Assembly: GCA_963695915.1 (NCBI GenBank) | Contig: CAVOIO010000034.1 | Location: 15,654-79,653, forward strand | Origin: an uncultured beta proteobacterium | Lineage (GTDB): Bacteria; Pseudomonadota; Gammaproteobacteria; Burkholderiales; JACQAP01 | Length of the DNA stretch: 64,000 nt | Reading direction: 5' to 3' | Shown: piece by piece, positions 499 to 62,914 of the stretch | How positions within the stretch are numbered: position 1 is the first letter of the stretch | Layout of the letters: each line of letters opens with the position of its first letter | Notes under the pieces: generated by a model | Told to the model about the DNA's origin: nothing | The model's database searches: none | What the model saw: the letters and a program-made list of their open reading frames with translations, nothing else | Position numbers and translations under genes: made by a program

Positions 499-2352
499 AT
501 GGCCGAAGAAAAACCAAACAACCCCCGCCTCCGTCGATACGACGGAATTCGCGCGCACGCTCGCGGAAATTGCGCTGCGCAGCAGCCATCTCTTCAAGGA
601 ACACCTCGCAGAACAGTCGAAGGAGTCCGGCGAGGAACCGGTGGACGAACTCGGCGTCGGCAAGGCTTTCACCGACCTGGCTGCGAAGCTGATGACCGAC
701 CCGTTCAAGCTCGCCGAGGCCGGGATGCGCATGTGGCAGGACTACTTCATGTTGTGGCAGAACACCATGAAGAGGGCCATGGGCGAAGAATCCGCACCGG
801 TGGTGGAAGCTCCCAAGTCCGACAACCGCTTCCGCAGCGAGCTTTGGCAGAACAACCTGGTTTTCGATTACATCAAGCAGTCCTACCTGATCGCCGCGCA
901 GAACATCCAGAAGACCGTCTCCGAAGTCGAAGGCCTCGACGCGCAGACTGCGCGCAAGGTGAAGTTCTTCACCCGCCAGTACGTGGACGCGCTGGCCCCG
1001 ACCAATTTCGTGATGACCAATCCCGAGGTGCTGAAGACCACGGTAGAGACCGGGGGGAAGAACCTGCTCGACGGTCTCAACCACCTGCTCCACGACCTCG
1101 AACGCGGCCACGGCAAGCTGGCGATCAGCATGACCGACTACAAGGCGTTCAAGATGGGCGAAAACGTCGCCACCACGCCCGGGAAAGGTCGTCCACCAGA
1201 ACGATCTGATGCAGTTGATCCAGTATCAGCCGGCCACGACCGAGGTTTACCAGACGCCGCTGCTGATCATTCCGCCATGGATCAACAAGTACTACATCCT
1301 CGACCTGCGGCAGAAGAACTCGTTTATCAAGTGGGCAGTGGACCAGGGCATCACCGTGTTCGTGGTTTCCTGGGTCAATCCCGGCAAGGAACTCGCGAAC
1401 AAGGGTTTCGAGGACTACATGCTGGAAGGCCCGCTGGCGGCGCTGGATGCGGTGGAGAAGGCGACCGGCGAGCGTGAAGTCAACATGATCGGCTACTGCC
1501 TGGGTGGCACGCTCACCGCATCGGCGCTCGCCTGGATGGCGGCAAAGGGACAGTCGCGGGTTAAGAGCGTGACGTTCTTCACCGCGCTCCTGGATTTTTC
1601 CGAACCCGGCGAACTCGGCGTGTTCGTGGACGAAGGCGTGCTTTCCAACCTTGAAAAGAAAATGGAGAGCCGCGGCTATCTCGAAGGCGCGGAGATGGCC
1701 GGCACGTTCAACATGCTGCGAGCCAACGACCTGATCTGGTCGTTCGTGGTGAACAACTATCTGCTCGGCAAGGACCCGTTCCCGTTCGACCTGTTGTATT
1801 GGAATTCGGACTCCACCCGCATGCCGGCGAAAATGCACACCTTCTACCTGCGCAACATGTACATCAGGAACAAGTTGCGCGAACCCGGCGGAATCACGCT
1901 TGCCGGCGTGCCGATTGACCTGTCCAAAATCGACATTCCCACGTATTTCATCTCCACGGTCGAGGACCACATCGCACCGTGGAAGTGCACTTATCTCGGC
2001 GCCCGGTTGCTCAAGGGTCCTGTCCGCTTCGTGCTTGGCGGCTCCGGGCCACATAGCCGGCATCGTCAACCCGCCGGCGGCGAACAAGTACTGGTACTGG
2101 ACCAACGAGAAGCTGCGCGACAGCGCCGACGAATGGCTCTCCACCGCGGAGAAGCACGAAGGCTCGTGGTGGAACGACTGGGGCAACTGGCTGGCCGGCT
2201 TCGGCGGCGACAAGGTTCCCGCCCGCGTTCCCGGCAAAGGCGGGCTGAAAGTCATCGAGGACGCGCCGGGCACTTACGCGAGCTTCAGGCTCGATGCGGA
2301 GCCGGCCGATCCGCCGACGAAACCATCAAGACAAAAAACCAGACGGCGTTAA
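499..2352 (+). pseudogene. phaC: class I poly(3-hydroxyalkanoate) synthase PhaC, reading frame broken 3 times
   Basis: ATG 499 (MAEEKPNN). Frame changes near 520 (C-run), 1190 (TTPGK|[13 protein letters not shown]) and 2050 (VLGGSG|HIAGIVNPP). Lipase box [18 protein letters not shown] and C-terminal GSWWNDW are present. Pieces are ORFs 641-1477, 1209-2447 and 1900-2352. Confidence 0.9.
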
Positions 2353-2417
2353 CACGAAGGTGCACGAAAAAAAGAACAAGGAACACGAAGTACGGCAAAA
2401 GTGATTCTTCGTGTCGA
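2351..2417. repeat. weak member of the tandem-repeat hairpin family (ACACGAAG-type units)
   Basis: aacacgaag gtgcacgaaa ... gaacacgaag directly after the phaC stop, with a short complementary cttcgtgt at 2408-2415. The right arm is much shorter than in the other elements. Confidence 0.3.
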
Positions 2418-2453
2418 GCGCGGTCTGGCGGGCTGCGCGAAGCCTGAAACAGA

Positions 2454-3420
2454 CTAGAGCCACTTTGCCTTTCTGAACCGGTAGAAGAGATAGCCGTCTA
2501 TCGCCACCATTACCGCCACCGTCAGCGGGTAGCCCAGGCTCCAGTTCAGTTCCGGCATGTTGTCGAAGTTCATGCCGTAAACGCCCGCGATCATGGTGGG
2601 CACCGCGACCAGCGCGGCATACCCGGCCAAACGCTTGGTGACCTCGTTTTCCTGGATGGTCAGAAGCGACAGGTTCACCGATATCGCGGTGGTGACCATT
2701 TCCCGCAGAATGTCTATCGACTGGTTCACCCGGGCCAGGTGGTCGTAAACATCGCGGAAATACTCCTGGAGCCCCGCGCAAAGCTGCGGCACCCGGCCGC
2801 CGTAAAGTTTGCTGCTCGCCTCCAGAAGCGGCCCGGCGGCGTGCTTGAGGGTCATCAGTTTCTGCTTCAGGACGTACAGGGATTCAATGATCGCGCGGTT
2901 GTTTTGCCCGGAGAATATTCGCTTTTCGACTTCTTCGAGCTCGCCCTCAAGAGCGTCGAGCACGGGGAAGTAGCGGTCGACCACGGCGTCCATGATCGCG
3001 TAGAGCACATACGCCGAGCCGTGGCGCAGCAAGTCCGGCTCGCGTTCGCTGCGGGCGCGCACGTCGGCAAATCCCCGTTCGGTGTGGCTGCGAACCGAGA
3101 GTACGTAGTTGGGGCCGACGAATATGTCGACTTCGCCGACTTTCAGCTCGTCAGCCCGCAAGCTCCACGGTGTGAAGCACGATGAACAGCGAATCGCCGT
3201 ATTCCTCGATCTTGGGCCGCTGATGGCCGTGTCGCGCGTCCTCGACCGCAAGTTCGTGCAGTCCGAACTCTTGCTGCATCGTTTCGAGTTCTTCCAGGGT
3301 CGGCTCATACAGCGCGACCCAGACAAAACACTCCGGCCGGCGGACATACTCGTGGATCTCCTGCGGCTGAATATCGGCGAGCTTCCGCCCTTCCTCGTAT
3401 GCGACGCAGTTGACCAGCAT
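2454..3420 (-). pseudogene. corA: CorA Mg2+/Co2+ transporter, one frame change
   Basis: N-terminal part MLVNCVAYEEGRKL...FIVLHTVEL (ORF 3151-3453). C-terminal part ...VGEVDIFVGPNYVLSV...YGMNFDNMPEL... with two C-terminal TM helices (ORF 2454-3551). GMN motif present. Junction is near 3160. Confidence 0.9.
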
Positions 3421-9408: not shown

Positions 9409-12400
9409 ATGACCGATCTCAGCGTACGCACCGCCGATCAAGACAAGCAGGCGAAGAACAAGGTGCGCTTCATCACCGCCGCCAGCCTGTTCGACGGCCA
9501 CGACGCCTCGATCAACATCATGCGCCGCATCCTGCAGGCGAGCGGCGTCGAAGTCATACACCTCGGCCACAATCGTTCGGTGGACGAGATCGTCACCGCC
9601 GCGATTCAGGAAGACGTGCAGGGCATCGCCGTGTCCTCGTACCAGGGCGGACATGTGGAATACTTCAAGTACGCCATCGACCTGCTGCGCGAACGTGGCG
9701 CGAAGGACATCAAGGTGTTCGGCGGCGGCGGCGGGGTGATCGTTCCGGCCGAGATCGACGAACTGCACGGCTACGGCGTGGCGCGCATTTACTCCCCGGA
9801 GGACGGCGCGCGCATGGGTCTGCAGGGAATGATCACGGACATGATCCGCACCGCGGACCGCAACCTCTCCGCAGAGTTGCCGGCGAGCCTCGATGAAGTC
9901 TTCCGCGGCAATTTGCGCGAACTGGCGCGCGTCATCACCGGGCTCGAAAGCGCGACGCTGCCGGAGCCGCTGCGCCAGAAGCTGGCGAAGCGCGCGGCGG
10001 AACATGACAGCGTGCCGGTGCTCGGCATCACCGGGACCGGCGGCTCGGGCAAGTCGTCGCTCACCGACGAACTGATCCGCCGCTTCCGCATCGACCAGGA
10101 CGATGCGCTCAAGATCGCCGTGATTGCCGTAGATCCGTCGCGGCGCAAGACCGGCGGCGCGCTCTTGGGCGACCGCATCCGCATGAATGCGATCAACCAT
10201 CCGAACATCTACATGCGCTCGCTCGCCACCCGGGATGCGGGCAGCGAAATCGCCGCGTGCCTGCCGGACGTAATCGCCGCCTGCAAGTGCGCCGGCTTCG
10301 ACCTGATAATGGTGGAGACTTCCGGCATCGGCCAGGGAGACGCGGCCATCGTCCCGCATGTGGATTTCTCGCTGTACGTGATGACGCCGGAGTTCGGCGC
10401 CGCCAGCCAGCTCGAGAAAATCGACATGCTCGACTTTGCCGACTTCGTCGCGATCAACAAGTTCGACCGCCGCGGCGCGCAGGATGCCCTGCGCGACGTG
10501 CGCAAGCAGGTGCAGCGCAATCGCGGCGCCTTCAAGGAGGCCGCCGAGGCGATGCCGGTATTCGGCACCATTGCCTCGCGGTTCAACGACGACGGCGTGA
10601 CCGCGCTCTATCAGGCAATCGTTGCCGAACTCAGGACCCGCGGGCTCAAGGCCGGCGACGGCAAGCTCAAGCCGACCACCGTAAAGGCTTCGTCGGGGCA
10701 GAACGTTATCGTTCCGCCGGCGCGCGTGCGCTATCTGGCGGAAATTGCCGAAACCGTGCGCGGCTATCACGCCGATGTGGCGAAGCAGACCGGGATTGCG
10801 CGCGAGCGGCAGCATCTGCGGGAAGCAAAGCGGATGCTCCACCTCTCCCCGGCCCTCTCCCCCGCAAGCGGCGGAGAGGGAGTAACGGCGGCGCTGGATG
10901 TGCTCATTGCTGAGCGAGAGAAGACGCTGAGTCCCGAGGCAAGAAAACTGCTGGACGAATGGCCGCAGGTGAAGCAGTCGTATTCAGGTGACGAGCAGGT
11001 CACGAAAACCCGCGATCGCGAGATCCGAACGGTGCTGACGACGACGTCGCTGTCCGGCACCAGGGTGCCGAAGGTGGCGCTGCCTAGGTTCGAGGACGAT
11101 GGCGAAGTCCTCAAATGGCTGATGCGGGAAAACCTGCCCGGCTATTTCCCGTACACGGCGGGCGTGTTCCCGTTCAAACGCGAGAACGAAGACCCGACCC
11201 GGATGTTCGCCGGCGAAGGCGATCCGTTCCGCACCAACGCACGTTTCAAATTTCTGTCCCGGGACATGCCGGCCAAGCGTCTGTCCACCGCGTTCGACTC
11301 GGTGACGCTGTATGGATTCGATCCCCACGAGCGCCCGGACATCTACGGCAAGGTCGGCAACTCCGGCGTGTCGATCGCAACGCTGGACGACATGAAGGTG
11401 CTGTATTCCGGCTTCGACCTATGCGACCCGGCGACTTCGGTGTCGATGACCATCAACGGCCCGGCACCGACCATTCTCGCGATGTTCATCAACACGGCGA
11501 TCGACCAGCAGATCGACAAGTTCGTGGTACAGCATGGCCGTCGACCGAACGAGCAGGAAACCGCGAAGATCCGCGCCTGGACGCAGGAGAATGTGCGCGG
11601 CACCGTGCAGGCCGACATCCTCAAGGAAGACCAGGGGCAGAACACCTGCATTTTCTCCACCGAATTTTCGCTCAAGGTCATGGGTGACATCCAGGAATAC
11701 TTCGTGCGAAACAGGGTGCGCAATTTCTATTCGGTGTCGATCTCCGGCTATCACATCGCCGAGGCGGGCGCGAATCCGATCTCGCAACTTGCCTTCACGC
11801 TGTCGAATGGCTTCACCTTCGTCGAGGCCTATCTGGCCCGCGGCATGAATATCGACGACTTCGCGCCGAACCTGTCGTTCTTCTTCTCTAACGGCATGGA
11901 CCCGGAATACACGGTTCTCGGGCGCGTGGCGCGGCGCATCTGGGCCACGGCGATGAAGAACAAGTACGGCGCCAACGATCGCAGCCAGAAGCTGAAGTAC
12001 CACGTACAGACTTCCGGCCGCTCTCTGCACGCGCAGGAGATCGCGTTCAATGATATCCGCACCACACTGCAGGCGCTGATCGCGGTCTACGACAACTGCA
12101 ATTCGCTGCATACCAACGCCTACGACGAGGCGATCACGACGCCGACTGCCGAATCCGTGCGGCGGGCGCTCGCCATCCAGCTTGTCATCAACCGCGAGTG
12201 GGGCCTGGCGAGGAACGAGAATCCGAACCAGGGTTCGTTCATCATCGACGAACTGACCGATCTAGTGGAAGAAGCGGTACTGCAGGAATTCGAGCGCATC
12301 TCCGAGCGCGGTGGCGTGCTCGGCGCAATGGAAACCGGGTACCAGCGCAGCAAGATCCAGGAAGAATCGATGTACTACGAGCACAAGAAGCATGACGGCT

Positions 12401-13098: not shown

Positions 13099-13542
13099 AT
13101 GGAGTCGCGCCCGCAACTGGCGCTTTTGTGCTTGCGGCCAACGTTTATGGCTGAGCCCCGCCTCCGAATGCTCGCCATCGGTGCGCTCGCGGTCATTCAC
13201 GGCCTGGGCGCGCTCGGCGCACCCTTCGCCGCAGAACTCCATTTCGGTCAGGCTGGTGCGACCGCCCACCAGAACTTTCACGTGATTTGGGAGGCATTCA
13301 AGTACTTCGCCGCTTCGTCGGCATGCCTCGCGATTGCGCTCGGCCCGCTCCGCCGGGGCGAGCGCTGGGCGTGGTGGACCATGCTCGTCGCCTGCCTCTC
13401 GCTCTTCGGGGGCGTTTTCGTGGCGCACGCGCTGTCCGGGGGCGGGCCGGCTATCGATCACTGGTCCTACGGGACTTTCCTCGTAATTTCGATCGTTGCG
13501 CTCGCGGTGCTCGCCCGGGTTCCTCCCCGAGCGAACCGATAG
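13099..13542 (+). CDS. hypothetical small membrane protein (about 4 TM)
   Basis: The ORF has hydrophobic segments (LAIGALAVIHGLGALGA, WWTMLVACLSLFGGVFVA, FLVISIVALAVLA). I recognise no family. The start could be the internal Met at 13150. Confidence 0.4.
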   Translation: MESRPQLALLCLRPTFMAEPRLRMLAIGALAVIHGLGALGAPFAAELHFGQAGATAHQNFHVIWEAFKYFAASSACLAIALGPLRRGERWAWWTMLVACLSLFGGVFVAHALSGGGPAIDHWSYGTFLVISIVALAVLARVPPRANR

Positions 13543-15646: not shown

Positions 15647-15648
15647 CC

Positions 15649-16453: not shown

Positions 16454-16584
16454 GGTGAGGGGTGAGGTGGGAGGAGTGAGGGGAAATGCTTTTACCCATT
16501 TCGCTGCGACCTCGGCCAAATTTGTCGCTGACGCAATCAATATCGTGAGGATTTTCCTCACCCCTCACTCCTCACCCCTTACGC
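16454..16584. repeat. tandem-heptamer inverted-repeat element (GTGAGGG type)
   Basis: Left arm 16454-16483 ggtgaggggtgaggtgggaggagtgagggg begins 7 nt after the upstream stop. Right arm 16556-16584 cctcacccctcactcctcaccccttacgc ends 1-7 nt before the next start. The spacer is 72 nt and AT-richer. Confidence 0.8.
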
Positions 16585-17508: not shown

Positions 17509-17654
17509 GCGTGAGGGGTGAGGGGTGAGGGGTGAGGGGTAATTCGGTAGCCGATTTTCTTGCGGCGGGGTGGTCCGGACTTTGGAGCACCGGGCCGCTT
17601 TGTTTTTCCGTTTTGACTCCTCACCCCTCACCCCTCACCCCTCACACCTCACGC
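17509..17654. repeat. tandem-heptamer inverted-repeat element ((GTGAGGG)x4)
   Basis: Left arm 17509-17539 gcgtgaggggtgaggggtgaggggtgagggg begins 5 nt after the stop. Right arm 17619-17654 cctcacccctcacccctcacccctcacacctcacgc is its near-perfect reverse complement. The 79-nt spacer contains ggtccgg..ccgggcc followed by gctttgttttt. Confidence 0.85.
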
Positions 17655-17670
17655 CTTTAGGGTCTGACAA

Positions 17671-18735: not shown

Positions 18736-18793
18736 CTTGACGAGGAAGCAAACCACAGCCGGCCGCGGCACCATCTAATAAGGAGGCAACATC

Positions 18794-20125
18794 ATGGAGA
18801 AGTTCTTAAGTCTCAAGGCCCTGGTGCTGGGAGTCACCGCGGCGGGCGCACTCTCGGCAGCAGCGCAGACGTTCGCGCAGGCCAATGAACAGTTCGTTCC
18901 GGCACTCGTTTATCGAAGCGGCCCTTATGCGCCCAACGGCGTCCCCTTTGCAAACGGCTATGCGGACTATCTGACCCTGGTGAACGAACGCGACGGCGGC
19001 ATAAACGGTGTGAAGATCGTTTTCGAGGAATGCGAAACCGGCTACTCGACCGACCGCGGCGTAGAGTGCTACGAGCGCCTGAAGGGTAAGGGGCCCACCG
19101 GTGCGGCCGTGTTCAGCCCGCTCTCCACGGGGATCACCTACGCACTGACGGAAAAGGCGCCAGTGGACAAGATCCCGCTGATTACCATGGGCTACGGCCG
19201 CTCCGAATCCGTTGATGGGAGCGTGTTCGCATGGAACTTCCCGTTGCTGGGCACCTATTGGACTGCCGCCGACGTGATCATCCAGTACATCGGCCAAATG
19301 AACGGCGGCCTCGACAAGCTCAAGGGCAAGAAAATCGCACTGGTGTATCACGACTCGCCCTACGGCAAGGAGCCGATCCCGCTGCTCAACGAGCGCGCCA
19401 AGCGCCACGGCTTCGAACTGCTCACGATCCCGGTCACGCACCCGGGTGTGGAGCAAAAGGCGGCGTGGTTGCAGATCCGCCAGAACCGTCCCGATTACGT
19501 GCTGCTGTGGGGTTGGGGTGTGATGAACTCCACCGCGATCAAGGAAGCGGTGGCGGTGAACTATCCGCGCGACCACATGATCGGCGTATGGTGGGCCGGC
19601 GCCGAGCCCGACGTTCTGCCCGCTGGCGAAGACGCGAAGGGCTACAACTCCATCGCCCTGCAGCACTCGGCAGGCCAGATAGCGGTGCACGCGGACATCC
19701 TCAGGAATGTGTACGACAAGGGCAAAGGCGCAGGCAAGCGGGAGGAGGTGGGGCACGTGCTCTACAACCGCGGCATGCTCAACGCCATGCTGGTGGTCGA
19801 GTCGATCCGCGCTGCCCAGGGAAAATACGGCAAGAAACCGATGACTGGCGAACAGGTGCGCTGGGGCATAGAGAACCTCAACCTCGACCAGAACCGTATC
19901 AAGCAACTCGGTTTTGCCGGCATGCTGCAGCCATTAAAGGTGTCGTGCAATGATCACGAGGGCGTGCGCCATGCGCGTATCCACCAGTGGGACGGCGCCA
20001 AGTGGAAGTTCGTGTCGGACTGGATCGAAGGCGACAACACGCTGCTGCGGCCGATGGTGGACGAGGCGGCCAGGAAATACGCCAAGGAAAAGAACATCAC
20101 CCCGCGCGACTGTACAAAGGCGTGA
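18794..20125 (+). CDS. ABC transporter substrate-binding protein (type I PBP, LivK-like), secreted
   Basis: Strong SD aaggagg. Signal peptide MEKFLSLKALVLGVTAAGALSAAAQTFA. 443 aa, intact. Confidence 0.9.
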   Translation: MEKFLSLKALVLGVTAAGALSAAAQTFAQANEQFVPALVYRSGPYAPNGVPFANGYADYLTLVNERDGGINGVKIVFEECETGYSTDRGVECYERLKGKGPTGAAVFSPLSTGITYALTEKAPVDKIPLITMGYGRSESVDGSVFAWNFPLLGTYWTAADVIIQYIGQMNGGLDKLKGKKIALVYHDSPYGKEPIPLLNERAKRHGFELLTIPVTHPGVEQKAAWLQIRQNRPDYVLLWGWGVMNSTAIKEAVAVNYPRDHMIGVWWAGAEPDVLPAGEDAKGYNSIALQHSAGQIAVHADILRNVYDKGKGAGKREEVGHVLYNRGMLNAMLVVESIRAAQGKYGKKPMTGEQVRWGIENLNLDQNRIKQLGFAGMLQPLKVSCNDHEGVRHARIHQWDGAKWKFVSDWIEGDNTLLRPMVDEAARKYAKEKNITPRDCTKA

Positions 20126-20131
20126 ACGAAA

Positions 20132-20234
20132 GTGAGGGGGAAGGGGTGAATAAGCGAAGCGCTCCCCCTCCTCTGTGGCCCGGGGGAGAGGGCGCAGTGT
20201 GAGGGATCACGCATTCACCCTTCACGCATTCACC
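20132..20234. repeat. tandem-heptamer inverted-repeat element (GTGAGGG/GTGAATG type) with nested REP-like palindrome
   Basis: Left arm 20132-20151 gtgagggggaaggggtgaat. Right arm 20213-20234 attcacccttcacgcattcacc. The spacer carries ctccccctcctctgtggcccgggggagaggg (20162-20192). Confidence 0.7.
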
Positions 20235-20254
20235 TGCCGATTGCCAACCTGAAC

Positions 20255-21082: not shown

Positions 21083-21180
21083 GGTGAGGGGTGAGGAGCG
21101 AGGGACGAGGGTAAGAGTAAAGGCGCATACAGCCTACGTCTGTCTATTTCCTCGACCCTCGCCCCTCGTCCCTCGCCCCC
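21083..21180. repeat. tandem-heptamer inverted-repeat element (G[TC]GAGGG type)
   Basis: Left arm 21083-21111 ggtgaggggtgaggagcgagggacgaggg begins 4 nt after the stop. Right arm 21150-21180 cctcgaccctcgcccctcgtccctcgccccc ends 5 nt before ATG 21186. Confidence 0.8.
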
Positions 21181-21185: not shown

Positions 21186-22492
21186 ATGGACTACTACGAC
21201 GACCTCGAAACCCGGGAGCCGGAAGTACGGGAAAGCGCGCTGTTTGCAGCGTTGCCCGGACAGATCGCGCACGCCAGGGCAAATGCTCCTTACTTCGCGC
21301 GCCTGCTGAAGGATGTCGAACCGAACTCGATACGCGACCGCAAGGCGCTGGCGAAGCTGCCGGTCACGCGCAAGTCCGACCTGATTGCACTGCAGAAGGA
21401 CGCGCCGCCGTTCGCCGGAATGACGGCGGTTGCGACCGGCGCTCTGGGCCGGGTGTTCTCTTCACCGGGTCCGATTTACGACCCGCAGGGCGCCAGGGGT
21501 GATTTCTGGCGCATGGGCCGGGCGCTGTTCGCGGCGGGGTTCCGGCGCGGCGACCTGGTGCACAACACGTTCTCCTATCATTTCACGCCGGCGGGAATGA
21601 TGATGGATCTGGGCGCGCAGGCGATCGGCTGCGCGGTGTTCCCGGCCGGCATCGGGCAGACCGAACTGCAGGTCGCGGCGATTGCGGACCTTAAACCGGA
21701 TGGCTACGCCGGAACGCCTTCGTTCCTGAAGATCCTTCTCGAGAAAGCCGACGAACTGAAGGCCGACGCCTCGAGCCTGAAGAAAGCACTGGTGTCGGGC
21801 GAGGCCTTGCTGCCGCCGGTGCGCGACGTGGCTCAAGGCGCGCGGCATCGACGTGCGCCAATGCTACGGCACCGCGGACCTGGGGCTGATCGCCTACGAA
21901 ACCGAACCGATGGGCGGACTGATCGCGGACGAAGGCGTCATCGTCGAGATCCTGCGCCCCGGCACCGGCGATCCAGTCGCCGAAGGTGAAGTCGGGGAAG
22001 TGGTGGTGACGACGTTATGCACCGAGTATCCGCTGATCCGCTTCGCCACCGGCGATCTGTCCGCCGTGGCCGTCGGCATCAGCCCCTGCGGCCGCACCAA
22101 TACGCGCATCAGGGGATGGATGGGACGTGCCGACCAGACGACGAAAGTGAAAGGCATGTTCGTGCATCCTTCGCAGGTTGCGCAGGTGGTGAAACGCCAC
22201 CCGGAGATCCTGAGGGCGCGGTTGGTTGTGGACCATGATGCCGAAAAGAACGATCGCATGACGCTTGCGCTGCGAAGTCCGCAACCGGAACGATCTGCTG
22301 GCGCAGGCCATTACCAATACGCTGCGCGAGGTGTGCAAGCTGCGCGGACAGGTCGAGTTCGCCGACGCCGGCTCGCTGCCCAACGACGGCAAGGTTATCG
22401 AGGATTTACGCAAGTACGACTTAGTAACCCTCAGCGCAAAGGCGCGAAGGCGTAAGGATCGAAAGAAGGCGAAACGATCGAAGAACGTCTAG
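21186..22492 (+). pseudogene. phenylacetate-CoA ligase-like adenylate-forming enzyme (PaaK / F390-synthetase family), frame broken 2 times
   Basis: MDYYDDLETREPEVRESALF...LPVTRKSDL...FSSPGPIYDP..; YGTADLG..; KVKGMFVHPSQV. Frame changes near 21830 and 22265. The last 16 codons (..AKARRRKDRKKAKRSKNV) are encoded by the next repeat arm. Confidence 0.8.
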
Positions 22493-22552
22493 GATCAGGC
22501 GCTCTGTTCGCGACTGTCTTCACTCCTCACCCTTCGCTCCTCAGCGCTTCAC
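22444..22552. repeat. tandem-heptamer inverted-repeat element (GCGAAGG type)
   Basis: Left arm 22444-22487 gcgaaggcgtaaggatcgaaagaaggcgaaacgatcgaagaacg overlaps the 3' end of the upstream ORF. Right arm 22518-22552 cttcactcctcacccttcgctcctcagcgcttcac. Pairing is imperfect and can occur in several registers. Confidence 0.6.
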
Positions 22553-25981: not shown

Positions 25982-26154
25982 GAGTGAATGAGTGAAGGGT
26001 GAACGAGTGAAGGGTGAAAGACTCAGAACATGACCAAATCGGGGATTCCCTGTTGACCCGGCGGCGCGGACGAACGCTTTACCCGTTCACCTTTCACGCC
26101 TTCACACATTCACGCATTCACCATTCACTCATTCACCCTCATCACTGATTCACC
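25982..26154. repeat. tandem-heptamer inverted-repeat element (GTGAAGG/GTGAATG type) filling the aceE-aceF gap
   Basis: Left arm 25982-26020 gagtgaatgagtgaagggtgaacgagtgaagggtgaaag begins 3 nt after the aceE stop. Right arm 26077-26154 (ctttacccgttcacctttcacgccttcacacattcacgcattcaccattcactcattcaccc...) ends 9 nt before the aceF ATG. Confidence 0.85.
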
Positions 26155-31207: not shown

Positions 31208-31241
31208 GGCGCGAGGCATGAGGCGCGAGATCGAGGAGCGA
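31208..31241. repeat. single purine-rich tandem-repeat arm (GGCGCGAGG-type) after the rng stop
   Basis: ggcgcgaggcatgaggcgcgagatcgaggagcga. I found no matching complementary arm nearby. Confidence 0.35.
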
Positions 31242-31362: not shown

Positions 31363-31394
31363 AAGGAATCAAAAGGAACGCAAAGGAAAACCGG
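31363..31394. repeat. single arm related to the ACGCAAAG-type element at 41414
   Basis: aaggaatcaaaaggaacgcaaaggaaaaccgg shares gaacgcaaaggaaa..ccgg with 41431-41449. Confidence 0.35.
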
Positions 31395-38933: not shown

Positions 38934-38971
38934 GCGCACGGCGTCGCGGAATATCCTGCCAGGAGCAATCG

Positions 38972-40130: not shown

Positions 40131-40244
40131 GGGATGAAGGCGGAAGGAAGGGCAAGAGACTGCTAAGAAAGGACTCTACGGCCTTCAATGCCGTCCGCTG
40201 TTATCTCACTTCATCCCTCATCCCTCATCCCTCGTCCCTGCTTC
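40131..40244. repeat. tandem-heptamer inverted-repeat element (GATGAGG/GGAAGGA type) between convergent genes
   Basis: Left arm 40131-40158 gggatgaaggcggaaggaagggcaagag. Right arm 40207-40244 cacttcatccctcatccctcatccctcgtccctgcttc also supplies the last codons (..QGRGMRDEG*) of the minus-strand gene. Confidence 0.75.
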
Positions 40245-41413: not shown

Positions 41414-41573
41414 CAACGCAAAGACGCAAAGAACGCAAAGGAAACCCGGATAATGGGAACGAATGGTTCATGGCACCGATACTCTGATAGCCGTGCTTGC
41501 GGCGAACCGGGTCTGCAGAGCGATATTTGCGTCCATTCATCAGCATTTCTTTGCGTTCTTTGCGTCTTGCGTG
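41414..41573. repeat. tandem-octamer inverted-repeat element (ACGCAAAG type)
   Basis: Left arm 41414-41444 caacgcaaagacgcaaagaacgcaaaggaaa. Right arm 41546-41573 tttctttgcgttctttgcgtcttgcgtg. The spacer is 101 nt. Confidence 0.85.
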
Positions 41574-45788: not shown

Positions 45789-45819
45789 CCTTCGCCCCTC
45801 GCTCCTCGCCCCTCTTTCC
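45789..45819. repeat. single pyrimidine-rich heptamer arm (CCTCGC[CT] type) between nodI and nodJ
   Basis: ccttcgcccctcgctcctcgcccctctttcc. No convincing partner arm. Confidence 0.4.
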
Positions 45820-46769: not shown

Positions 46770-46905
46770 GACGCAGAGGGCGCAGAGGAAACAAGAAAGG
46801 ACACAAAGAAATGTTGGGATACGAACAATTTCAAGTTTTCAATAGCGTCCTTTCTTTTTTCTTTGCGCTCTCTCTGTGGTTCCCTCTGGCGGGACGTCTC
46901 TGCGT
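46770..46905. repeat. tandem-repeat inverted-repeat element (GCGCAGAGG / AAGAAAGG type)
   Basis: Left arm 46770-46811 gacgcagagggcgcagaggaaacaagaaaggacacaaagaaa. Right arm 46848-46905 tcctttcttttttctttgcgctctctctgtggttccctctggcgggacgtctctgcgt. The spacer is 36 nt. Confidence 0.75.
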
Positions 46906-53277: not shown

Positions 53278-53302
53278 TTCTCGCTATGAGAACGGAAACC
53301 GG

Positions 53303-53450
53303 AACCGCCAAGACGCCAAGGCCGAAGAAGACCGAATTGATAATTGGTCATCGCGGATATTCCCTGAGAAGTTCGACCGTGAGATCCATCTCCATTGCCG
53401 TTCGCTCGCGTTTCCTCTGAATTCCTTGCGGCCTTGGCGTCTTGGCGGTT
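53303..53450. repeat. tandem-octamer inverted-repeat element (CGCCAAGA type) filling the potA-potB gap
   Basis: aaccgccaagacgccaaggccg (53303-53324) is a perfect 22-nt reverse complement of 53429-53450 (cggccttggcgtcttggcggtt). The spacer is 94 nt. Confidence 0.9.
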
Positions 53451-53476
53451 CAACTGATCTCCAAGCCGTCAGTCGT

Positions 53477-56413: not shown

Positions 56414-56619
56414 TGATTTCTCCTAAGTTTAAATACCTGACGCGACCACCATTCGGAAGGCCTATGGAGGCGGCAGCGCCCGAATCTGGCAGGAAGTTGC
56501 ATACGGCCGACGCGCCGGTACACCAACGGGCAGGATTTTGGCGACCGATTGTGACAATTTCATTAAACGTCACATAGAGACCGCCAAGGATTGCGGCGTA
56601 GCCGGCAGCGGCGGTCAGA

Positions 56620-58144
56620 TCAGCCAGGCACGCGATCTGCAAGCAGCAGAACGATCAGGAGGACCGACAGGATTCCGGTCAGCAGGCGGTTGTGGCGCCG
56701 CTGACTTTGCAGCAAAGCATCCATTGCCGCGCGCAGGTCGTTGGCAGGACGATCCGATAGCGCGCGATGCACCAGGCGCGGCAACTGCGGCAGCAGCACC
56801 GCCCATTGCGGCGCCTCGTTGCGCAGGTTGCGCAACAGGCCGCGCCAGCCGACCTGCTCGGACATCCAGCGTTCGAGATAGGGTTTGGCCGTTTTCCACA
56901 GATCCAGGTCGGGATCGAGGTCCCTGCCCAGGCCTTCGATGTTGAGCAGGGTCTTTTGCAGCAGCACCAGTTGCGGCTGGATCTCGATGTTGAAGCGGCG
57001 CGAGGTCTGGAACAGACCGCAGCAGCACCTTGCCGAAGGAAATCTCCTTCAGCGGTTTGTCGAAGATCGGCTCGCACACCGCGCGAATCGCGGTCTCGAA
57101 CTCGTCCACGCGGGTCTGCGGCGGAATCCAGCCGGACTCGATGTGGACCTCCGCCACGCGCCGGTAGTCGCGCCGGAAGAAGGCGAGGAAGTTCTGCGCC
57201 AGGTAATTCTTGTCCACCTCGGTGAGCGTGCCCATGATGCCGAAATCCAGCGCGATGTAACGCCCGTCCGGCGCGACGAAGATGTTGCCGGGATGCATGT
57301 CGGCATGGAAGAAACCGTCGCGGAACACCTGGGTGAAGAAGATCTCGACGCCGGCGCGCGCCAGTTTCGGAATATCGATGCCCTGTTGGCGCAGTCTTTC
57401 GACCTGGCTTACCGGCGTGCCGCTCATGCGCTGCATCACCATGACCTGGCTGCTGCAGAAGTCCCAGAAGATCTCCGGCACCCGCAGGAAGCGGAGAGTT
57501 CGTCGAAGTTGCGGCGCAACTGGCTGGCGTTCGCCGCCTCGCGCAGCAAGTCGAGTTCGTCATTGAGGTGCTTCTCGAACTCGCCGACCACTTCCCGCGG
57601 CTTCAGGCGGCGGCCGTCCTTCCACAGCCGCTCGATCAATCCGGCGGCGACATTGAGCAACGCAATATCTTCGACGATGATTCGGTCAGATCCCCGGCCT
57701 CAGGATCTTCACCGCCACTTCGCGCCCGCCGGGCAGTAACGCGAAATGCACCTGTGCCACCGAGGCGCTGGCGACCGCCACGGCGTCGAAGCGCTCGAAC
57801 ACTTCCGAGGCAGGCTTGCCGTAGGCGCGCTCCAGGGACTGGAACACCTGTTCGGCCGCGAACGGCGGCACCTGGTCCTGTAGTTTCGCCAGTTCGTCGG
57901 CGATGTCGAGCGGGATCAGGTCGCGGCGGGTGGACAGCACCTGGCCGAACTTCACGAATATCGGCCCGAGCGCTTCCAGCGCGAGGCGCAGACGCTCTCC
58001 GCGCGGCCGCTCGAGGCGGCGCCAGAACAGCAGCCCCGCAGTCAACACGCGCAATCCGCGCACCCTGGCATGGCCGAGGAAGAACTCGTCCAGCCCAAAG
58101 CGCAACGAGATGTACACGATCTTGAACAGCCGCAGCAGGTGCAT
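56620..58144 (-). pseudogene. ubiB: ubiquinone biosynthesis regulatory protein kinase UbiB (ABC1 family), frame broken 3 times
   Basis: ..[21 protein letters not shown].., ..ASVAQVHFA.. and ..[13 protein letters not shown]... Frame changes near 57680, 57470 and 57010. Confidence 0.9.
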
Positions 58145-58185
58145 GAAAGGTGACGGCGAGTGCGCCGCGCTTTCCTTATGTTCTT

Positions 58186-58780
58186 CTATCTGCCGCGGAC
58201 CGGCCGCGACAGGCGCTCGATGCGCTTGTCCAGGCGCTCCACGGCATCGCGCAGTTCGTCTACCTCGCGCATGAACTCGGCGGCCTGCAAAGGCGTGACC
58301 AGCATACCGACGTTCTCCTCGGTGAGATATTCGGCGGCGTTTTCGGCCAGGCTCATGGCAGCCTGCTTCGGCCACGCGGCGGCCGCCCGTCCTGCCTGCG
58401 CCATGCGATGCGCCGCGATGTCGCCGACCACCCGGCTCAGGTCCTCCTCCACATCCCAGCGCAGGTTGGATGCGACCTGGGAAATGACCGCGGCAAAATC
58501 GGTATCACCGGTGACTTCGGCCTTGCGCCAGGCTTCCTCGCCGTCCGCCAATACCTCGAGCAGCGTGAGGTGCGTGAGCCGGATCGTCACCGCCGGCGCG
58601 GCTTCCGGCAGCGCCGGCTGCAATCTGCCGTCTGCCGCCACCGCCAACGCCAGCCGGGCCGGAAACACGTCGAAAAGCGCAGTCTTGCCGGCGTGTGCAC
58701 TCAGCTTGGCACGCGCCCACGGCGCGGACTCGAGCAGGTGATTGGCGAATGCGACGAAACGCGGCGGCAAGCATCGGCAT
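58186..58780 (-). pseudogene. ubiJ: SCP2-domain ubiquinone biosynthesis accessory factor UbiJ, one frame change near the 5' end
   Basis: Located between ubiE and ubiB. ..[47 protein letters not shown].. The ATG overlaps the ubiE stop. Confidence 0.7.
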
Positions 58781-60094: not shown

Positions 60095-60127
60095 TGCAAA
60101 CGCTCAAATCCGACTGGTACAGCAGCC

Positions 60128-60815: not shown

Positions 60816-60901
60816 CCTGCGGGGCCCCGCTCCGAATCGGCTCCGGCAAATTCTGGGATAATCCGCCCTGGCTAACCCAGAGGACGGAACGCTTGAAGTC
60901 C

Positions 60902-62240: not shown

Positions 62241-62725
62241 GGTTTTCTCTCCAGCAACCCGGACAATTGCTGTTGCATCGAGCGGACGAATCCCGCCGGC
62301 AGCGGACGGGCGCCGTCCCGTTGCCTGGCTCCGAACACCGGGTTGGGAAAATGCGGATCGTCGGCAAAGCGCGGAATGATGTGCCAATGCAGGTGCGGCA
62401 CCATGTTGCCGAAGCTGGCCAGGTTGATCTTCTCCGGTGCGAGGAGTTCGCGCAGCACGCGTTCGACGACGAACACGGTATTCATCAACCGCGCACGCTC
62501 GGCTTCGGTGAGATCGGTCATCTCTTTCGTGTGGGCATTCAGGATCACCCGGCAATAGGCGGGATGATCGGCATCGCCGATCAGCACCACTCGGGCGAAG
62601 CCGTCGTTCCAGAGCACTTCGCCCCCGGCTTGCGCGCACAGCGCGCAAGCAGTGACGGGTGACGAGTGACCGGTAACTGGAGAAACCTTTCCCGTACTGA
62701 TTCTGGTCTTGGATCGGCTAGTCAC
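62237..62725 (-). CDS. HIT (histidine triad) family hydrolase; start uncertain
   Basis: ..NMVPHLHWHIIPR.. (HxHxHxx motif) and CALCAQ..EVLWNDGFARVV. As listed, the first 25 or so codons (GTG 62725) are encoded by the adjacent repeat element. Confidence 0.8.
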   Translation of the reverse strand: MTSRSKTRISTGKVSPVTGHSSPVTACALCAQAGGEVLWNDGFARVVLIGDADHPAYCRVILNAHTKEMTDLTEAERARLMNTVFVVERVLRELLAPEKINLASFGNMVPHLHWHIIPRFADDPHFPNPVFGARQRDGARPLPAGFVRSMQQQLSGLLERKP

Positions 62726-62740
62726 AAGTCACCGCTCACT
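62652..62740. repeat. tandem-heptamer inverted-repeat element (GTGACGG type) at the intI truncation point
   Basis: Left arm 62652-62677 gtgacgggtgacgagtgaccggtaac. Right arm 62721-62740 gtcacaagtcaccgctcact. The spacer is 43 nt. Confidence 0.7.
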
Positions 62741-62914
62741 ATTCGCCAGCGCCGAGGGGGGGTGGCGCTAATCGTGGACCAGCACAAACCGCGGTACCCA
62801 ATCGACATAAGACTGCTCGGTGCGGATACTATTGTGCTTGACGCGCAGCCGACCGCGGATCTGGTCCAGGAGCTTCGGTTCACTGGGCGGGACCGGGTCG
62901 GGATCAGGGCGCAT
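62735..62914 (-). pseudogene. intI: integron integrase IntI, N-terminal ~60-codon remnant with premature TAG
   Basis: MRPDPDPVPPSEPKLLDQIRGRLRVKHNSIRTEQSYVDWVPRFVLVHD*RHPPSALANSE aligns with the IntI1 N-terminus (..[47 protein letters not shown]). Everything downstream is missing. Confidence 0.7.

Follow-up and report, generated by a model that had tools for sequence, protein, structure and literature searches.

How can the two arms of an intergenic inverted repeat stay complementary when the sequence of both changes from one site to the next? The question is raised by elements of 90-190 bases that occupy many gene-to-gene gaps of an uncultured betaproteobacterium. Each is built from a purine-rich (R) arm of 7-9-base repeat units, a spacer, and a pyrimidine-rich (Y) arm that mirrors the R arm. 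We studied these elements in one stretch of 64 kb (the window) and at roughly 20 further loci of the same clade. The initial annotation of the window had described them as non-coding, self-complementary and alike in architecture, a description that the present analysis supports, and had read their locus-to-locus changes as covariation supporting a selected stem or, alternatively, as two arms homogenised against each other.

The elements are real, are restricted to one small clade and are replaced very fast. All 11 full sites of the initial annotation were present (Table 1). A strict detector (arms of at least 14 nt, at least 78% complementary, 20-140 nt apart, periodic and purine-skewed) found 6 elements in the window, against a mean of 0.03 and a maximum of 1 in 30 dinucleotide shuffles; 2.0 Mb of outgroup sequence (156 loci) gave 9 matches, or 0.29 per 64 kb. 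The elements fold far better than dinucleotide shuffles, strongly at 7 of the 11 full sites (z -5.3 to -10) and more weakly at the four with folding starts 20128, 22430, 62648 and 40127 (z -1.3 to -4.1), and their sense and antisense folding energies revealed no consistent bias. A contig from another assembly (L001, GCA_025450795.1), 99.5% identical to the window, carries the elements, as do many k141 short-read contigs, which establishes their presence in independent assemblies. The perfect match noted between 53303-53324 and 53429-53450 and the match of about 30 nt between 17509 and 17619 were both recovered, within the inverted repeats listed for elements E10 and B. The description of the arms as tandem units was borne out in part: Tandem Repeats Finder reported two arrays, one per arm, for only 5 of the 11 full sites, the others having 2-3 degenerate units. 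The four sites annotated as weak or single-armed resolved into a short hairpin (2351-2417), spanned by an open reading frame with a junk translation, and solo purine arms, of which those at 31208 and 45789 lie just past stop codons; a search for a partner of the tract at 31363-31394 found none. The arm at 45789 is conserved in L176 with one substitution.

Table 1. Elements and solo arms of the window, with z-scores of RNA folding against 100 dinucleotide shuffles, keyed by the start of the folding window
Feature	Coordinates	Strand	Context	Arms	Inverted repeat	Fold z (start)
Element A	16454..16584	.	livG/livH junction	R arm 16454-16483, GTGAGGG-type; Y arm 16556-16584	16455-16481/16556-16582, 27 nt, 85%	-6.0 (16450)
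Element B	17509..17658	.	livH/livM junction	(GTGAGGG)x4.3, 75-82 nt spacer, (CCTCACC)x5.4	17505-17540/17623-17658, 36 nt, 94%	-10 (17505)
Element C	20132..20234	.	sbp/livF junction	degenerate R arm; Y arm TCACGCATTCACCCTTCACGCATTCACC		-2.6 (20128)
Element D	21083..21180	.	livF/AMP-binding gene junction	GTGAGGG/GCGAGGG/ACGAGGG units mirrored as CCTCGC/CCTCGT	21095-21111/21163-21179, 17 nt, 94%	-6.4 (21080)
Element E	22434..22552	.	AMP-binding/CMD junction	R arm CGCAAAGG/CGCGAAGG-type; Y arm decayed		-2.9/-4.1 (22430)
Element F	25982..26154	.	PDH E1/E2 junction	GTGAATG/GTGAAGG/GTGAACG x5, spacer, TTCACN x7.6	25984-26011/26109-26136, 28 nt, 89%	-5.3/-6.6 (25978)
Element E7	40131..40244	.	between convergent HTH-like gene and rlmL	left arm GGATGAAGGCGGAAGG; right arm (TCATCCC)x4		-1.3/-2.1 (40127)
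Element E8	41414..41573	.	HIRAN/rlmL junction (minus-strand genes)	(ACGCAAAG)x3, spacer, (CTTTGCGT)x2-3	41421-41440/41549-41568, 20/20 (own detector)	-6.0 (41410)
Element E9	46770..46905	.	hydrolase/ABC ATPase junction	GACGCAGAGG-type		-5.7 (46766)
Element E10	53302..53451	.	potA-like ATPase/permease junction	perfect arms GAACCGCCAAGACGCCAAGGCCG	53302-53324/53429-53451, 23/23	-8.1 (53299)
Element E11	62652..62740	.	adjoins HIT-family gene (putative context)	GTGACGG/GTGACGA/GTGACCG, then GTCACAAGTCACCGCTCAC		-3.3 (62648)
Weak element	2351..2417	.	between convergent phaC and corA	ACACGAAGG units, short partner CTTCGTGT		-1.9
Solo purine arm	31208..31241	+	immediately past stop of upstream plus-strand gene	GGCGCGAGGCATGAGGCGCGAG...
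Solo purine tract	31363..31394	.		AAGGAATCAAAAGGAACGCAAAGGAAAACC
Solo purine arm	45789..45819	-	immediately past stop of ABC ATPase gene	GGAAAGAGGGGCGAGGAGCGAGGGGCGAAGG

All arm units belong to one mutational continuum, roughly SRYRARGG, and within it the elements of the clade use at least 8-10 families of 7-10-nt units side by side. The spacers (about 40-110 nt) are unrelated between loci, and the earlier statement that no single REP or MITE consensus underlies the elements is supported. They are not uniformly AT-richer than the arms, as had been claimed, GC content being 0.47-0.49 at the arm edges and 0.58-0.62 in the centre. Purine content declines gradually across the element, from 0.75 to 0.26, a gradient that would be expected from growth in place, with decayed arms making up the inner parts. 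Inside element C lies a REP-like hairpin of Y-to-R order (about 20158-20195). The polarity of the elements themselves is R-then-Y in all of about 25 independent cases, and an unbiased scan for purine tracts adjoining pyrimidine tracts recovered 6 R-then-Y and 0 Y-then-R arrangements in the window and 7 and 0 in clade relatives; the purine arm is indeed always 5'. Note that the reverse complement of R-spacer-Y is again R-spacer-Y, and polarity is consequently uninformative on the direction of genes or replication.

Alignment of orthologous intergenic regions, a comparison that the initial annotation had proposed, revealed differences in both presence and unit number. At one and the same stop-to-start junction, genomes whose flanking genes differ by 4-15% have unrelated elements, remodelled arms or no element at all; L162 and L082 are 95.7% identical across livH and livM, yet differ radically at 5 of 6 junctions. 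Element A is identical in L001, and site A presents six arm types over seven lineages. Five arm types occur at site D among clade genomes, and six when outgroup L002 is included, where a single-unit inverted repeat (GCGTGAAG...GCTCACGC) encloses an inner hairpin; in L083, tandem units surround a hairpin orthologous to it, a pair of states that suggests growth in place. The spacer of element B is orthologous in L082. Element C is orthologous in L162 and L003 and absent in the L082 species, in which stop and start overlap as GTGA and TGAAC, which flanks the element in other genomes, is present once at the empty site. An element is also missing from site B of L083 and from sites E8 and E10 of L179, the last having a gap of about 29 nt. 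At site F the L082 species retains Y-arm units alone (48 nt) and L002 has none. At site E8 of L176, whose flanks are 94.5% identical, the filling is unrelated and only the terminus CTTTGCGGTGAAG is retained, and element E9, with longer terminal inverted repeats (TTCAAGGGCGTTGACGCAGAG in relatives), is orthologous in L176 and L179. Single arms may be overwritten with loss of pairing, as in window E7, which has a left-arm 16-mer in common with L174 (18291-18397) and differs from its L176 counterpart, whose arms still pair at 94%. Outgroup gaps at these junctions measure 8-60 nt.

Smaller steps are visible between closer sequences. Over 6.5 kb at 99.5% identity, the window and L001 differ by only two indels, one GTGAGGG unit in each arm of element B (L001 being shorter). 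This concerted change is a single case, and in the other comparisons one arm changed alone. For example, the L162-type element B has a right arm of 5 units in L162, 4 in L180 and about 3.4 in L182, with the left arm unchanged. In PDH E1, a purine heptamer array in a variable loop also shows in-frame expansion, which adds to the evidence for slippage.

The arms also recur between sites. In the window, GTGAGGG-type arms are found at three full sites (16454, 17509 and 21083), and the solo arms at 31208 and 45789 have related units of GYGAGG type; CGCAAAG-type units form two full sites (22434 and 41414) and the tract at 31363, and GTGAAKG-type arms two sites. Arms of the same type, down to their non-repeat termini, appear at non-orthologous sites across genomes and species: the L082 site D arm matches that of window A, termini included, the arms of L003 site D, L082 site A and window E9 match one another, the L164 site E arm matches window E8, and L174 site G has a 16-mer in common with window E7. 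The unit family of the weak element at 2351 is that of L003 site A. In L162 the sharing extends to a whole element, spacer included, with sites A and B, at junctions 1 kb apart, identical at 129/162 positions; L174 site B holds the orthologue, and both members of the pair are found in L180-L183. The description of the units as locus-specific was therefore overstated.

Mismatches between arms comprise 79 G:T, 82 A:C and 160 other pairs, and the near equality of the first two implies that no RNA-wobble filter acts on the sense strand. Alignments of orthologous elements, in which compensatory changes had been proposed as a test, held almost none (0/38 and 2/45). Perfect arms of 20-27 nt reproduce a heterogeneous order of units, as in window E10 and in the L162 counterpart of element E, built of the same units (CGCAAAGG-CGCGAAGG-CGCAAAGG, 27/27), and lineage-specific variants are mirrored in both arms (GCGAGG/ACGAGG in window D, GTCAGG in L082 site D). 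Given the lack of wobble bias and the near absence of compensatory pairs, the complementarity looks copied at the DNA level rather than selected pair by pair. These results, together with the overwriting of a single arm at 40131, speak against covariation supporting a selected stem and fit the homogenisation of one arm against the other.

The base of the stem lies at a median of about 6 nt past the stop codon and about 15 nt ahead of the start codon. Nearly every core-clade genome has an element at the same six junctions, although the sequences there have been replaced completely, and three other junctions are never occupied in any genome: acs/livG, where the genes overlap, livM/sbp, with a conserved 61 nt that includes AAGGAGG, and cmd/E1, a TATAAT promoter region. 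Genes downstream of elements mostly lack a Shine-Dalgarno sequence, whereas sbp has AAGGAGG. No transposase or RAYT was found among the window ORFs scanned against Pfam (a set without some short ORFs) or among the genes called in about 100 kb of relatives.

We lean towards the view, drawn from sequence comparison, that the elements would be a clade-specific superfamily of DNA-level self-complementary microsatellite elements, intergenic hairpin repeats. Slippage, template switching from arm to arm, ectopic conversion and deletion would drive them, and the tolerance of operon junctions would be the filter. Gain and loss of units through slipped-strand mispairing is shown by the comparisons of unit number. 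As at quasipalindromes, template switching within a strand or conversion directed by the hairpin would then recopy one arm from its partner, producing long perfect Watson-Crick arms that would later decay through point mutation. The observed sharing of arms and whole elements between sites may reflect ectopic conversion or duplication, and loss, documented at one site, may proceed through deletion across the hairpin base. Selection would be a filter only, the elements persisting where a hairpin is tolerated, in the stop-to-next-start gaps of co-transcribed or convergent genes, and only in the orientation that places the G-rich arm ahead of the C-rich arm in any transcript. A C-rich arm transcribed second would find its purine partner already present and pair at once, and so could not act as a Rho loading site. 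Similarly, a fold that keeps stop and start codons adjacent at the stem base could preserve translational coupling for genes that mostly lack a Shine-Dalgarno sequence of their own. Junctions that stay occupied through complete turnover, such as site A, could instead be places where a hairpin is needed, and arm families common to distant sites and species could also be the product of true transposition.

The former possibility, that polycistronic mRNA requires a long stem-loop at these junctions and that repeats are the easiest way to build and rebuild one, is one we entertain with some doubt. The hairpin might be a 3' protective structure, an RNase III site setting cistron stoichiometry, or a stop/start staple for reinitiation. 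The persistent occupation of six junctions and avoidance of three, the bracketing of stop and start codons, the contrast between most downstream genes and sbp, and a strict polarity visible to any transcript all agree with it. One element lies 3' of a binding-protein gene, like the REP after malE (the malE-malF REP stabilises the upstream binding-protein mRNA), and in L176 E9 a left CGCAGAG faces a right CTTTGCG, a combination that is G-U compatible in sense RNA. However, neither the mismatches overall nor the folding energies favour the sense strand, compensatory pairs are almost absent, elements E and E7 of the window have decayed (z -1.3 to -2.9), others have been deleted outright, solo arms persist, and outgroups manage with their short gaps. 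Transposition would make the elements non-autonomous, in several MITE or REP/BIME families whose arms are terminal inverted repeats recognised by an enzyme, or several, with genes elsewhere in the genome. Several observations would suit it: the conserved termini of arm families that occur in more than one species and at non-orthologous loci (e.g., TTCACC|GC...GC|GGTGAA and TCGGTGAGGGG...CCTTACGCATT), the full-length paralogous pair, presence/absence differences among close relatives, the TGAAC at site C, the CATTGA that flanks window element A, and one element copy on an IMG/VR contig. We nevertheless judge it unlikely: copies of one family have unrelated spacers, one neighbouring pair excepted, target-site duplication is inconsistent, single arms are replaced independently, the arms (GTGAGGG, CGCAAAG, CGCCAAGA, GGATGAAGG) are too diverse for one enzyme, and no candidate enzyme appeared among the genes scanned. 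The only full-length paralogues, moreover, are just 1 kb apart, which favours local conversion.

Folding of the G-rich arm into a DNA or RNA quadruplex, an idea put forward for GGGNATC repeats, would account for (GTGAGGG)4 at 17511-17540, a textbook G4N3 motif, and for the several G3-4 tracts in the arms at 16454 and 21083, and position and polarity match the repeats of Xanthomonas and Nostoc. Most unit families, however, are without G-tracts (ACGCAAAG, CGCCAAGA, CACGAAGG, GTGAATG, GTGACGG, GTGATTA), and a perfect complementary partner would compete with the quadruplex. The diversity of units argues against this as a general explanation, and we consider it very improbable. The window assembly is apparently error-prone, with many genes split or fused relative to relatives, and this could invite the idea of chance inverted repeats or an assembly artefact. 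We give that idea practically no credence, as it is already refuted by the identity with L001, the orthologues in other species and the shuffle controls.

Several known systems resemble the self-complementary microsatellite elements favoured here. REPs are palindromes of 20-40 nt that follow one or a few consensus sequences in each genome and come with a RAYT. Like REP/BIME sequences, our elements are intergenic, transcribed, hairpin-forming, species-specific and located in operons and at 3' ends, but they have tandem-unit stems around 40-110-nt spacers, many consensus types and no RAYT in the material scanned. With MITEs (Correia, ERIC, RUP) they share a length of 100-200 nt, terminal inverted repeats, intergenic location, presence/absence polymorphism and multi-locus families; they differ in having internally repetitive arms remodelled arm by arm, with no conserved internal core, consistent target-site duplication or identifiable parent IS. 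Integron attC sites likewise combine conserved structure with variable sequence in imperfect inverted repeats directly past a stop codon, but here there is no R-box (GTTRRRY) core, integrase or cassette array, and the flanks are syntenic housekeeping operons. Template-switch mutagenesis at quasipalindromes (Ripley; Lovett and colleagues) and palindrome-stimulated deletion between short direct repeats would, with no need for selection on pairing, explain perfect arms, mirrored variants and the exact removal of sequence between TGAAC repeats. It is a mutational mechanism and not an element family, and we know of no case in which it builds elements of such size or density.

The closest precedent is found in Xanthomonas, which has convergent inverted pairs of GGGAATC heptamer repeats, with GGGGA(C/T)T repeats in Nostoc (Rehm et al. 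2015, PMC4692102). The Xanthomonas repeats are tandem G-rich heptamers, intergenic and mostly between co-directional ORFs, with the G-rich strand less than 50 bp past stop codons (sense) and the C-rich strand less than 50 bp ahead of starts (antisense repeats); each genome has 70-75 close pairs, always convergent (PMC4692102). Repeat number varies between species, the single or paired type is usually kept, and there is no IS association; one unit is used genome-wide, with a preference for four units that was read as quadruplex formation, and, in a comparison of two species, 83% of repeats had kept their gene context (PMC4692102). Our elements are alike in their tandem G-rich heptamers, intergenic position near stops and starts, convergent polarity and lack of IS association. 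They differ in their many unit families, most of them unable to form a quadruplex, and in wholesale replacement between genomes only 4-6% diverged. The elements consequently look like a many-family relative of the Xanthomonas pairs rather than a wholly new kind, and the earlier remark that they were not recognised as a described repeat family needs this qualification. Long SSRs of 5-11 nt in prokaryotes, as summarised from Mrazek et al. 2007 (PMC4679880), have heptamers as their commonest unit, occur in phylogenetically scattered genomes that include Betaproteobacteria (Burkholderia), and are proposed to originate by polymerase slippage. Heptamer units and a proposed slippage origin are thus common to our elements, these SSRs and cyanobacterial STRR heptamers; the arrays covered in that summary are direct, not paired inverted arrays filling stop-to-start gaps.

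The window is unusually dense in inverted-repeat elements, which are real and occur at roughly one per 5 kb. The initial annotation had described 11 sites with a purine-rich arm (R), a spacer, and a reverse-complementary pyrimidine-rich arm (Y), and this architecture was recovered at all 11, with arms of 20-50 nt and spacers of 38-108 nt. When folded against dinucleotide shuffles, the stems proved more stable: the gain was large at seven sites (z -5.3 to -10) and modest at the other four (z -1.3 to -3.3). A strict detector found 6 elements in the window versus 0.03 per shuffled window, and 0.29 per 64 kb in outgroups (2.0 Mb, 156 loci). A tract scan blind to complementarity returned six purine-then-pyrimidine pairs and no reverse pairs in the window, and seven versus none in clade relatives. 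An assembly artefact was ruled out by L001 (GCA_025450795.1), a different assembly 99.5% identical over 6.5 kb that has elements A and B, and by the orthologues of elements present on dozens of short-read contigs. Other parts of the original description were modified. Tandem arrays with a period of 7-9 were confirmed by TRF but were detectable in both arms at five sites only, and the spacers, said to be AT-richer, are not uniformly so. A higher-order 19-nt repeat (GAAGGCGAAACGATCGAAA, x1.9) lies within the purine arm of element E.

Positions of elements, solo arms, and associated features in the window and in the contigs of relatives
Feature	Sequence	Position	Context
Weak element	window	2351	between convergent genes
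Element A	window	16454	livG/livH gap
Element B	window	17509	livH/livM gap
Element C	window	20132	sbp/livF gap
Element D	window	21083	livF/AMP-binding gap
Element E	window	22434	AMP-binding/CMD gap
Element F	window	25982	E1/E2 gap
Element E7	window	40131	between convergent genes
Element E8	window	41414	between co-directional minus-strand genes
Element E9	window	46770	between co-directional minus-strand genes
Element E10	window	53302	between co-directional minus-strand genes
Element E11	window	62652	
Solo purine arm	window	31208	directly past stop codon
Solo purine arm	window	45789, minus strand	directly past stop codon
Solo pyrimidine arm	L082 species		directly before E2 start
livM/sbp spacer	window	18736-18793	element-free
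19-nt repeat	window	22446-22482	purine arm of element E
In-frame heptamer array	window	25439-25471	PDH E1 (ORF 23297-25978)
sbp/livF overlap	L164 (L082 species)	13514-13517	element C missing; compare window 20123-20257
Duplicated element, site A	L162	9827-10000	flanks livH
Duplicated element, site B	L162	10910-11071	flanks livH
Element on viral-collection contig	L175	3259-3354	
Extended LivH	L184	331-1671 (P0002)	
Short-loop hairpin, opposite polarity	window	~20158-20195	
Short-loop hairpin, opposite polarity	L176	~10830-10885	
Short-loop hairpin, opposite polarity	L002		site D
Short-loop hairpin, opposite polarity	L083		site D
Short-loop hairpin, opposite polarity	L054	12428-12513	
Split or fused gene regions	window	20255-21078, 21186-22420, 37892-39769, 40245-41390, 42413-44959, 56615-58375	intact in relatives

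Protein-anchored searches place the window (~62% GC) in an uncultured lineage of Betaproteobacteria/Burkholderiales. The nearest species representatives are L003, an 'uncultured Alcaligenaceae' MAG with a 93% identical LivH, and L002, an uncultured betaproteobacterial MAG (88%). The genes are housekeeping in nature and include a liv-type ABC transporter operon with two acyl-CoA ligase-like genes, PDH E1/E2, pilT/pilU, proC, hemJ, rlmL, a P-type ATPase, polyamine-type and ABC-2 transporters, ubiE/ubiB, and a two-component system. Scans of the whole window for tRNA and tmRNA found none, and Rfam 15 covariance models gave 0 matches at gathering score. No transposase, integrase or RAYT was present among the window ORFs scanned, and no RAYT (Y1 transposase) among the genes called in ~100 kb of relatives. 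In the window livF, the AMP-binding gene, rlmL, the P-type ATPase gene and ubiB are broken into several ORFs and pilT/pilU look fused, relative to the intact genes of L162, L176 and L179. Since several genes are split or fused in this way, the window probably derives from an error-prone (long-read) assembly, and the pattern suggests indel errors of such an assembly, or pseudogenes.

Gene calls in relatives give the operon order acs-livG-livH-livM-sbp-livF-(AMP-binding)-CMD-[promoter]-E1-E2, in which elements A to F fill stop-to-start gaps. The outer stem starts a median of ~6 nt past the stop codon and ends a median of ~15 nt ahead of the next start. Of 12 elements, 9 have co-directional neighbours and 2 are flanked by convergent genes. 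Many genes downstream of elements are without a Shine-Dalgarno sequence of their own, as are their counterparts in outgroups. The junctions acs/livG, livM/sbp and CMD/E1 were element-free in every genome examined. At the first of these the genes overlap and at the last there is a conserved TATAAT. The livM/sbp spacer (58-61 nt) is conserved throughout the clade and contains a strong AAGGAGG and a palindromic, GC-rich core (CAGCCGGCCGCGGCAC). It may serve regulation or processing upstream of the binding-protein gene. The polarity proposed for the elements, R then Y, was found in every case. This architecture is strand-symmetric, its reverse complement being again R-spacer-Y. Constant polarity is consequently uninformative about the direction of genes or replication, and its interpretation as a replication or transcription signal was rejected. 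A transcript from either direction reaches the purine arm first. No intrinsic terminator (GC-rich stem, short loop and T-run) was called at the outer stem of any element, with counts equal to those of shuffles.

Comparison with relatives (L-numbered contigs or loci) revealed rapid turnover. Nucleotide identities of livH and livM define a tree that joins L162 with L082 (95.7%), then L174 (~93.6%), the window with L001 (~92.7%), L003 (~85.5%), and the pair L083 and L002 (~80.5%). Most of these junctions in outgroups L002, L005, L085 and L086 are gaps of 8-60 nt, or have longer fillings without tandem arrays, whereas the same junctions in the core clade hold elements of 100-230 nt; the elements are thus a clade-specific gain. 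Site A carries an element in seven lineages, and six arm types are represented (GTGAGGG in the window, GTGAGGC in L162, GTGACNN in L174, CACGAAGG in L003, CGCAGAG in L082 and CACAGAG in L084) and site D has five arm types. Three unrelated fillings occupy site B, where the window groups with L082, and L162 with L174, contradicting the gene tree. Even L162 and L082, with flanking genes that are 95.7% identical, differ radically at five of the six junctions. A second region, obtained via HemJ, exhibited the same behaviour: E8 of the window and of L176 (94.5% identical flanks) are unrelated except for one terminal unit, E8 and E10 are absent in L179, and one arm of E7 has been rewritten; conservation was observed for E9 and for the solo arm at 45789. 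Loss is documented at site C, at which the L082 species has a single TGAAC and others have TGAAC-element-TGAAC. Without element C, sbp ends and livF begins within a shared GTGA, and the N-terminus of LivF becomes VNESTQA instead of MSVQA, so gain or loss of an element alters the start codon of the downstream gene.

The livG/livH gap of the more distant L004 and L007 (75-78% identical) is 115-124 nt long and contains an inverted repeat that is A/C-rich and then G/T-rich (GACACAACATCA...TGATGTTGTGT). The junction may thus have held a hairpin before the purine-unit elements arose. In L184, a high-GC relative, the intergenic element is absent, the livH start overlaps the livG stop (TGATG), and the 446-aa LivH has a long N-terminal extension.

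The sequence of the elements had been regarded as locus-specific. This held for spacers, which are unrelated between loci, but not for arms, which recur at non-orthologous sites. In an all-against-all Smith-Waterman comparison of spacers, orthologues alone exceeded the null (27 vs 6.7 +/- 1.8, maximum 16), together with one neighbouring paralogous pair in L162, where the same element of 155-170 nt occurs at sites A and B, 1 kb apart, with 129/162 positions identical, spacer included; the pair recurs in L180-L183. Both arms are common to the elements at site D of L082 and site A of the window, including the non-repeat termini TCGGTGAGGGGTGAGG and CCTTACGCATT. Arms of the CGCAGAGGACGCRGAG type are common to L003-D, L082-A and window E9, CGCAAAGACGCAAAGRACGCAAAG to L164-E and E8, the heterogeneous 16-mer GGATGAAGGCGGAAGG to L174-G and E7, and ACACGAAGG to L003-A and the weak window element at 2351. 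The units form a connected mutational network, jointly described by roughly SRYRARGG, with chains such as GTGAGGG-GCGAGGG-ACGAGGG and CGTGAAGG-CGCGAAGG-CGCAAAGG-CGCAGAGG-CACGAAGG-CACGGAGG, and neighbouring variants often appear together in one arm. At least eight unit families occur in the 64 kb, none of them GGGNATC. The initial annotation would have been contradicted by arms that are diverged copies of a few families, and their recurrence goes part of the way towards this. The spacer comparison gave no shared MITE core, and no consistent target-site duplication was present across ~35 elements, with suggestive cases at site C (TGAAC) and window A (CATTGA).

Slippage of units is directly visible. 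The window and L001 differ by only two indels, each of one unit, one in each arm of element B. The L162-type right arm of this element counts 5 units in L162, 4 in L180 and ~3.4 in L182, beside a constant left arm, so arm lengths need not change jointly. The idea of concerted change that the L001 comparison had raised was dropped, given that arms change singly in these strains and between L082 and the window. A purine heptamer array also expands within the coding sequence of PDH E1, where (GAGGGGA)x4.7 occupies a variable loop in frame, giving GRGERGEGRG; the array is longer in the L082 species (GRGVGEGRGVKDDGRG) and absent from L162 and L002. Heptamer slippage consequently seems to be a general mutational habit of the clade. 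Site D suggests that elements may have grown in place: in L083, tandem units surround an inner hairpin whose orthologue in L002 is enclosed by an inverted repeat of a single unit. The gradual gradient of purine content across elements (0.75 to 0.26) points in the same direction.

Complementarity within loci of differing sequence had been attributed either to between-locus covariation from a selected stem or to homogenization of the arms against each other. The second account fits our results better. The best arms are perfectly Watson-Crick paired over 20-27 nt and reproduce a mixed order of unit variants (27/27 in L162-E, 23/23 in window E10), and both arms share lineage-specific variants (GCGAGG in window D, GTCAGG in L082 D), which fits the recopying of an entire arm from its partner. 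Mismatches between arms in 35 distinct elements oriented with genes comprised 79 G:T, 82 A:C and 160 others. Selection for pairing in the sense RNA should raise G:T, and the lack of enrichment argues against it. Folding energies showed no consistent bias between sense and antisense strands. Alignments of orthologous and paralogous elements (RNAalifold) contained compensatory double changes in 0/38 and 2/45 pairs, and many broken pairs. Pairing has also disappeared: in window E7, sequence of a different family has replaced the left arm (z -1.3), the counterpart arms in L176 still pairing at 94%, and the right arm of window element E has decayed. Taken together, these patterns favour copying at the DNA level. 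The main rival holds that a hairpin is functionally required at the junctions for mRNA protection, processing or coupling, and its best support is that the same junctions stay occupied through complete sequence turnover. The absence of wobble enrichment, of strand bias in energy, and of more than a handful of compensatory pairs nevertheless makes a required hairpin rather unlikely.

We judge it somewhat probable, from sequence comparisons, that the elements are self-complementary microsatellites driven mainly by DNA-level processes, with selection acting as a filter on position and orientation. Unit number would change by slippage, template switching of the quasipalindrome kind would recopy an arm from its partner, sequence would move between elements by ectopic conversion or duplication, and hairpin-stimulated deletion would remove them. 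The putative filter would act on where elements sit and how they are oriented. A self-closing fold would keep stop and start codons adjacent, many downstream genes having no Shine-Dalgarno sequence, and a G-rich arm transcribed first would pair the C-rich arm on emergence, leaving no Rho loading site in the untranslated gap. Transposase-driven MITEs or REPs would account for the shared arm families, but unrelated spacers, arm-by-arm remodelling, and the lack of consistent target-site duplications render this origin improbable. Quadruplex formation by the G-rich arm can apply to the GTGAGGG family only, as arms of this type alone have four or more G3+ tracts and CGCAAAG, CGCCAAGA, GTGAATG and others do not. 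We give little credence to the proposal that a dedicated process rather than generic slippage makes and replaces the elements, and that these also act as 'stop-start staples'. One candidate process might be structure-specific recombination or templated repeat synthesis that extends the 3' ends flanking a break with purine-rich units, which by itself would generate the invariant R-then-Y polarity on both strands. As staples, the elements might set translational coupling and Rho escape at operon junctions. If true, they would constitute a new structure-defined class of fast-evolving element, with a logic comparable to that of attC sites.

Purine arms were also considered as Shine-Dalgarno mimics or CsrA (GGA) sites, a reading rejected because only some units are alike and the motifs would be base-paired; units of the CACGGAGGA type presumably fit the RsmE-type consensus CANGGANG, a candidate resemblance. 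A supply of stop codons in all frames was likewise rejected, since it holds for GTGA families only.

The closest precedent is the paired heptamers of Xanthomonas, whose genomes have ~185 GGGAATC arrays and, among these, 70-75 close pairs that converge (Rehm et al. 2015, PMC4692102). Those repeats lie within 50 bp past stops (sense) or before starts (antisense), are mostly transcribed and unlinked to IS elements, and 83% maintain the same gene context between the two species compared (PMC4692102). The present elements resemble the Xanthomonas and Nostoc repeats in having tandem 7-nt units that are non-coding, mostly between co-directional ORFs, G-rich just past stops and C-rich just before starts, with close pairs convergent. 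They differ in having many unit families and no single genome-wide consensus (GGGNATC), and in that most of their families are unable to form quadruplexes, whereas the known repeats have G3+ tracts and a preference for four units. They also differ from Xanthomonas in their long spacers and much faster turnover. As summarized in PMC4679880, the long SSRs of Mrazek show heptamer arrays to be common in some Betaproteobacteria. REP/BIMEs, MITEs and attC sites each share some properties with the elements and each fail at least one defining feature tested. REP/BIMEs are imperfect palindromes of 20-40 nt with a genome-specific consensus and a conserved 5' tetranucleotide, and here no common consensus exists. 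MITEs share terminal inverted repeats, and arms and termini are indeed common to non-orthologous sites, but conserved internal sequence is absent. Integron attC sites carry R''/R' cores (RYYYAAC...GTTRRRY) and come with an integrase in a cassette context. Judged from their termini (GYGTGA.../...TCACRC or TTCACCGC.../...GCGGTGAA) and their flanks of syntenic housekeeping operons, the present elements do not fit that description. The elements are therefore a many-family, fast-evolving form of a known repeat kind and not a categorically new element.

If the microsatellite reading is right, DNA-level processes in this clade make, homogenize, swap and erase non-coding hairpins over a few percent of sequence divergence, and do so within essential operons that stay undisrupted. 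The main interest of the elements is as a natural system for hairpin birth, homogenization and replacement in operons. They broaden the Xanthomonas observation from one quadruplex-prone unit to a many-family system, which weakens the quadruplex explanation for such repeats. They also point to a general rule, purine-rich past stop codons and pyrimidine-rich before starts, in at least three groups (Betaproteobacteria, Gammaproteobacteria and Cyanobacteria), which leads to testable ideas on Rho loading and translational reinitiation. In practice the elements provide hypervariable markers for strains. They also pose a hazard to assembly and to covariation analyses of RNA structure, because complementarity is kept without selection on pairing.

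One typical element lies on L175 (IMG/VR UViG_3300027921_000150; 14.9 kb, 64% GC), the only viral-collection contig to match the paired GTGAGGG pattern in one scan, which is too little from which to argue for phage carriage. This element begins 3 nt past a stop codon, and AAGGAG and ATG come next. A second type of hairpin, with a short loop and opposite polarity (e.g., CCCTCTCCCC-TTGC-GGGAGAGGG, then CCAGGGAGAGGGGG or GGGTGAGGG), recurs inside or in place of elements and at a Variovorax locus. It may represent a REP-like motif of wide occurrence, from which the GTGAGGG unit possibly arose.
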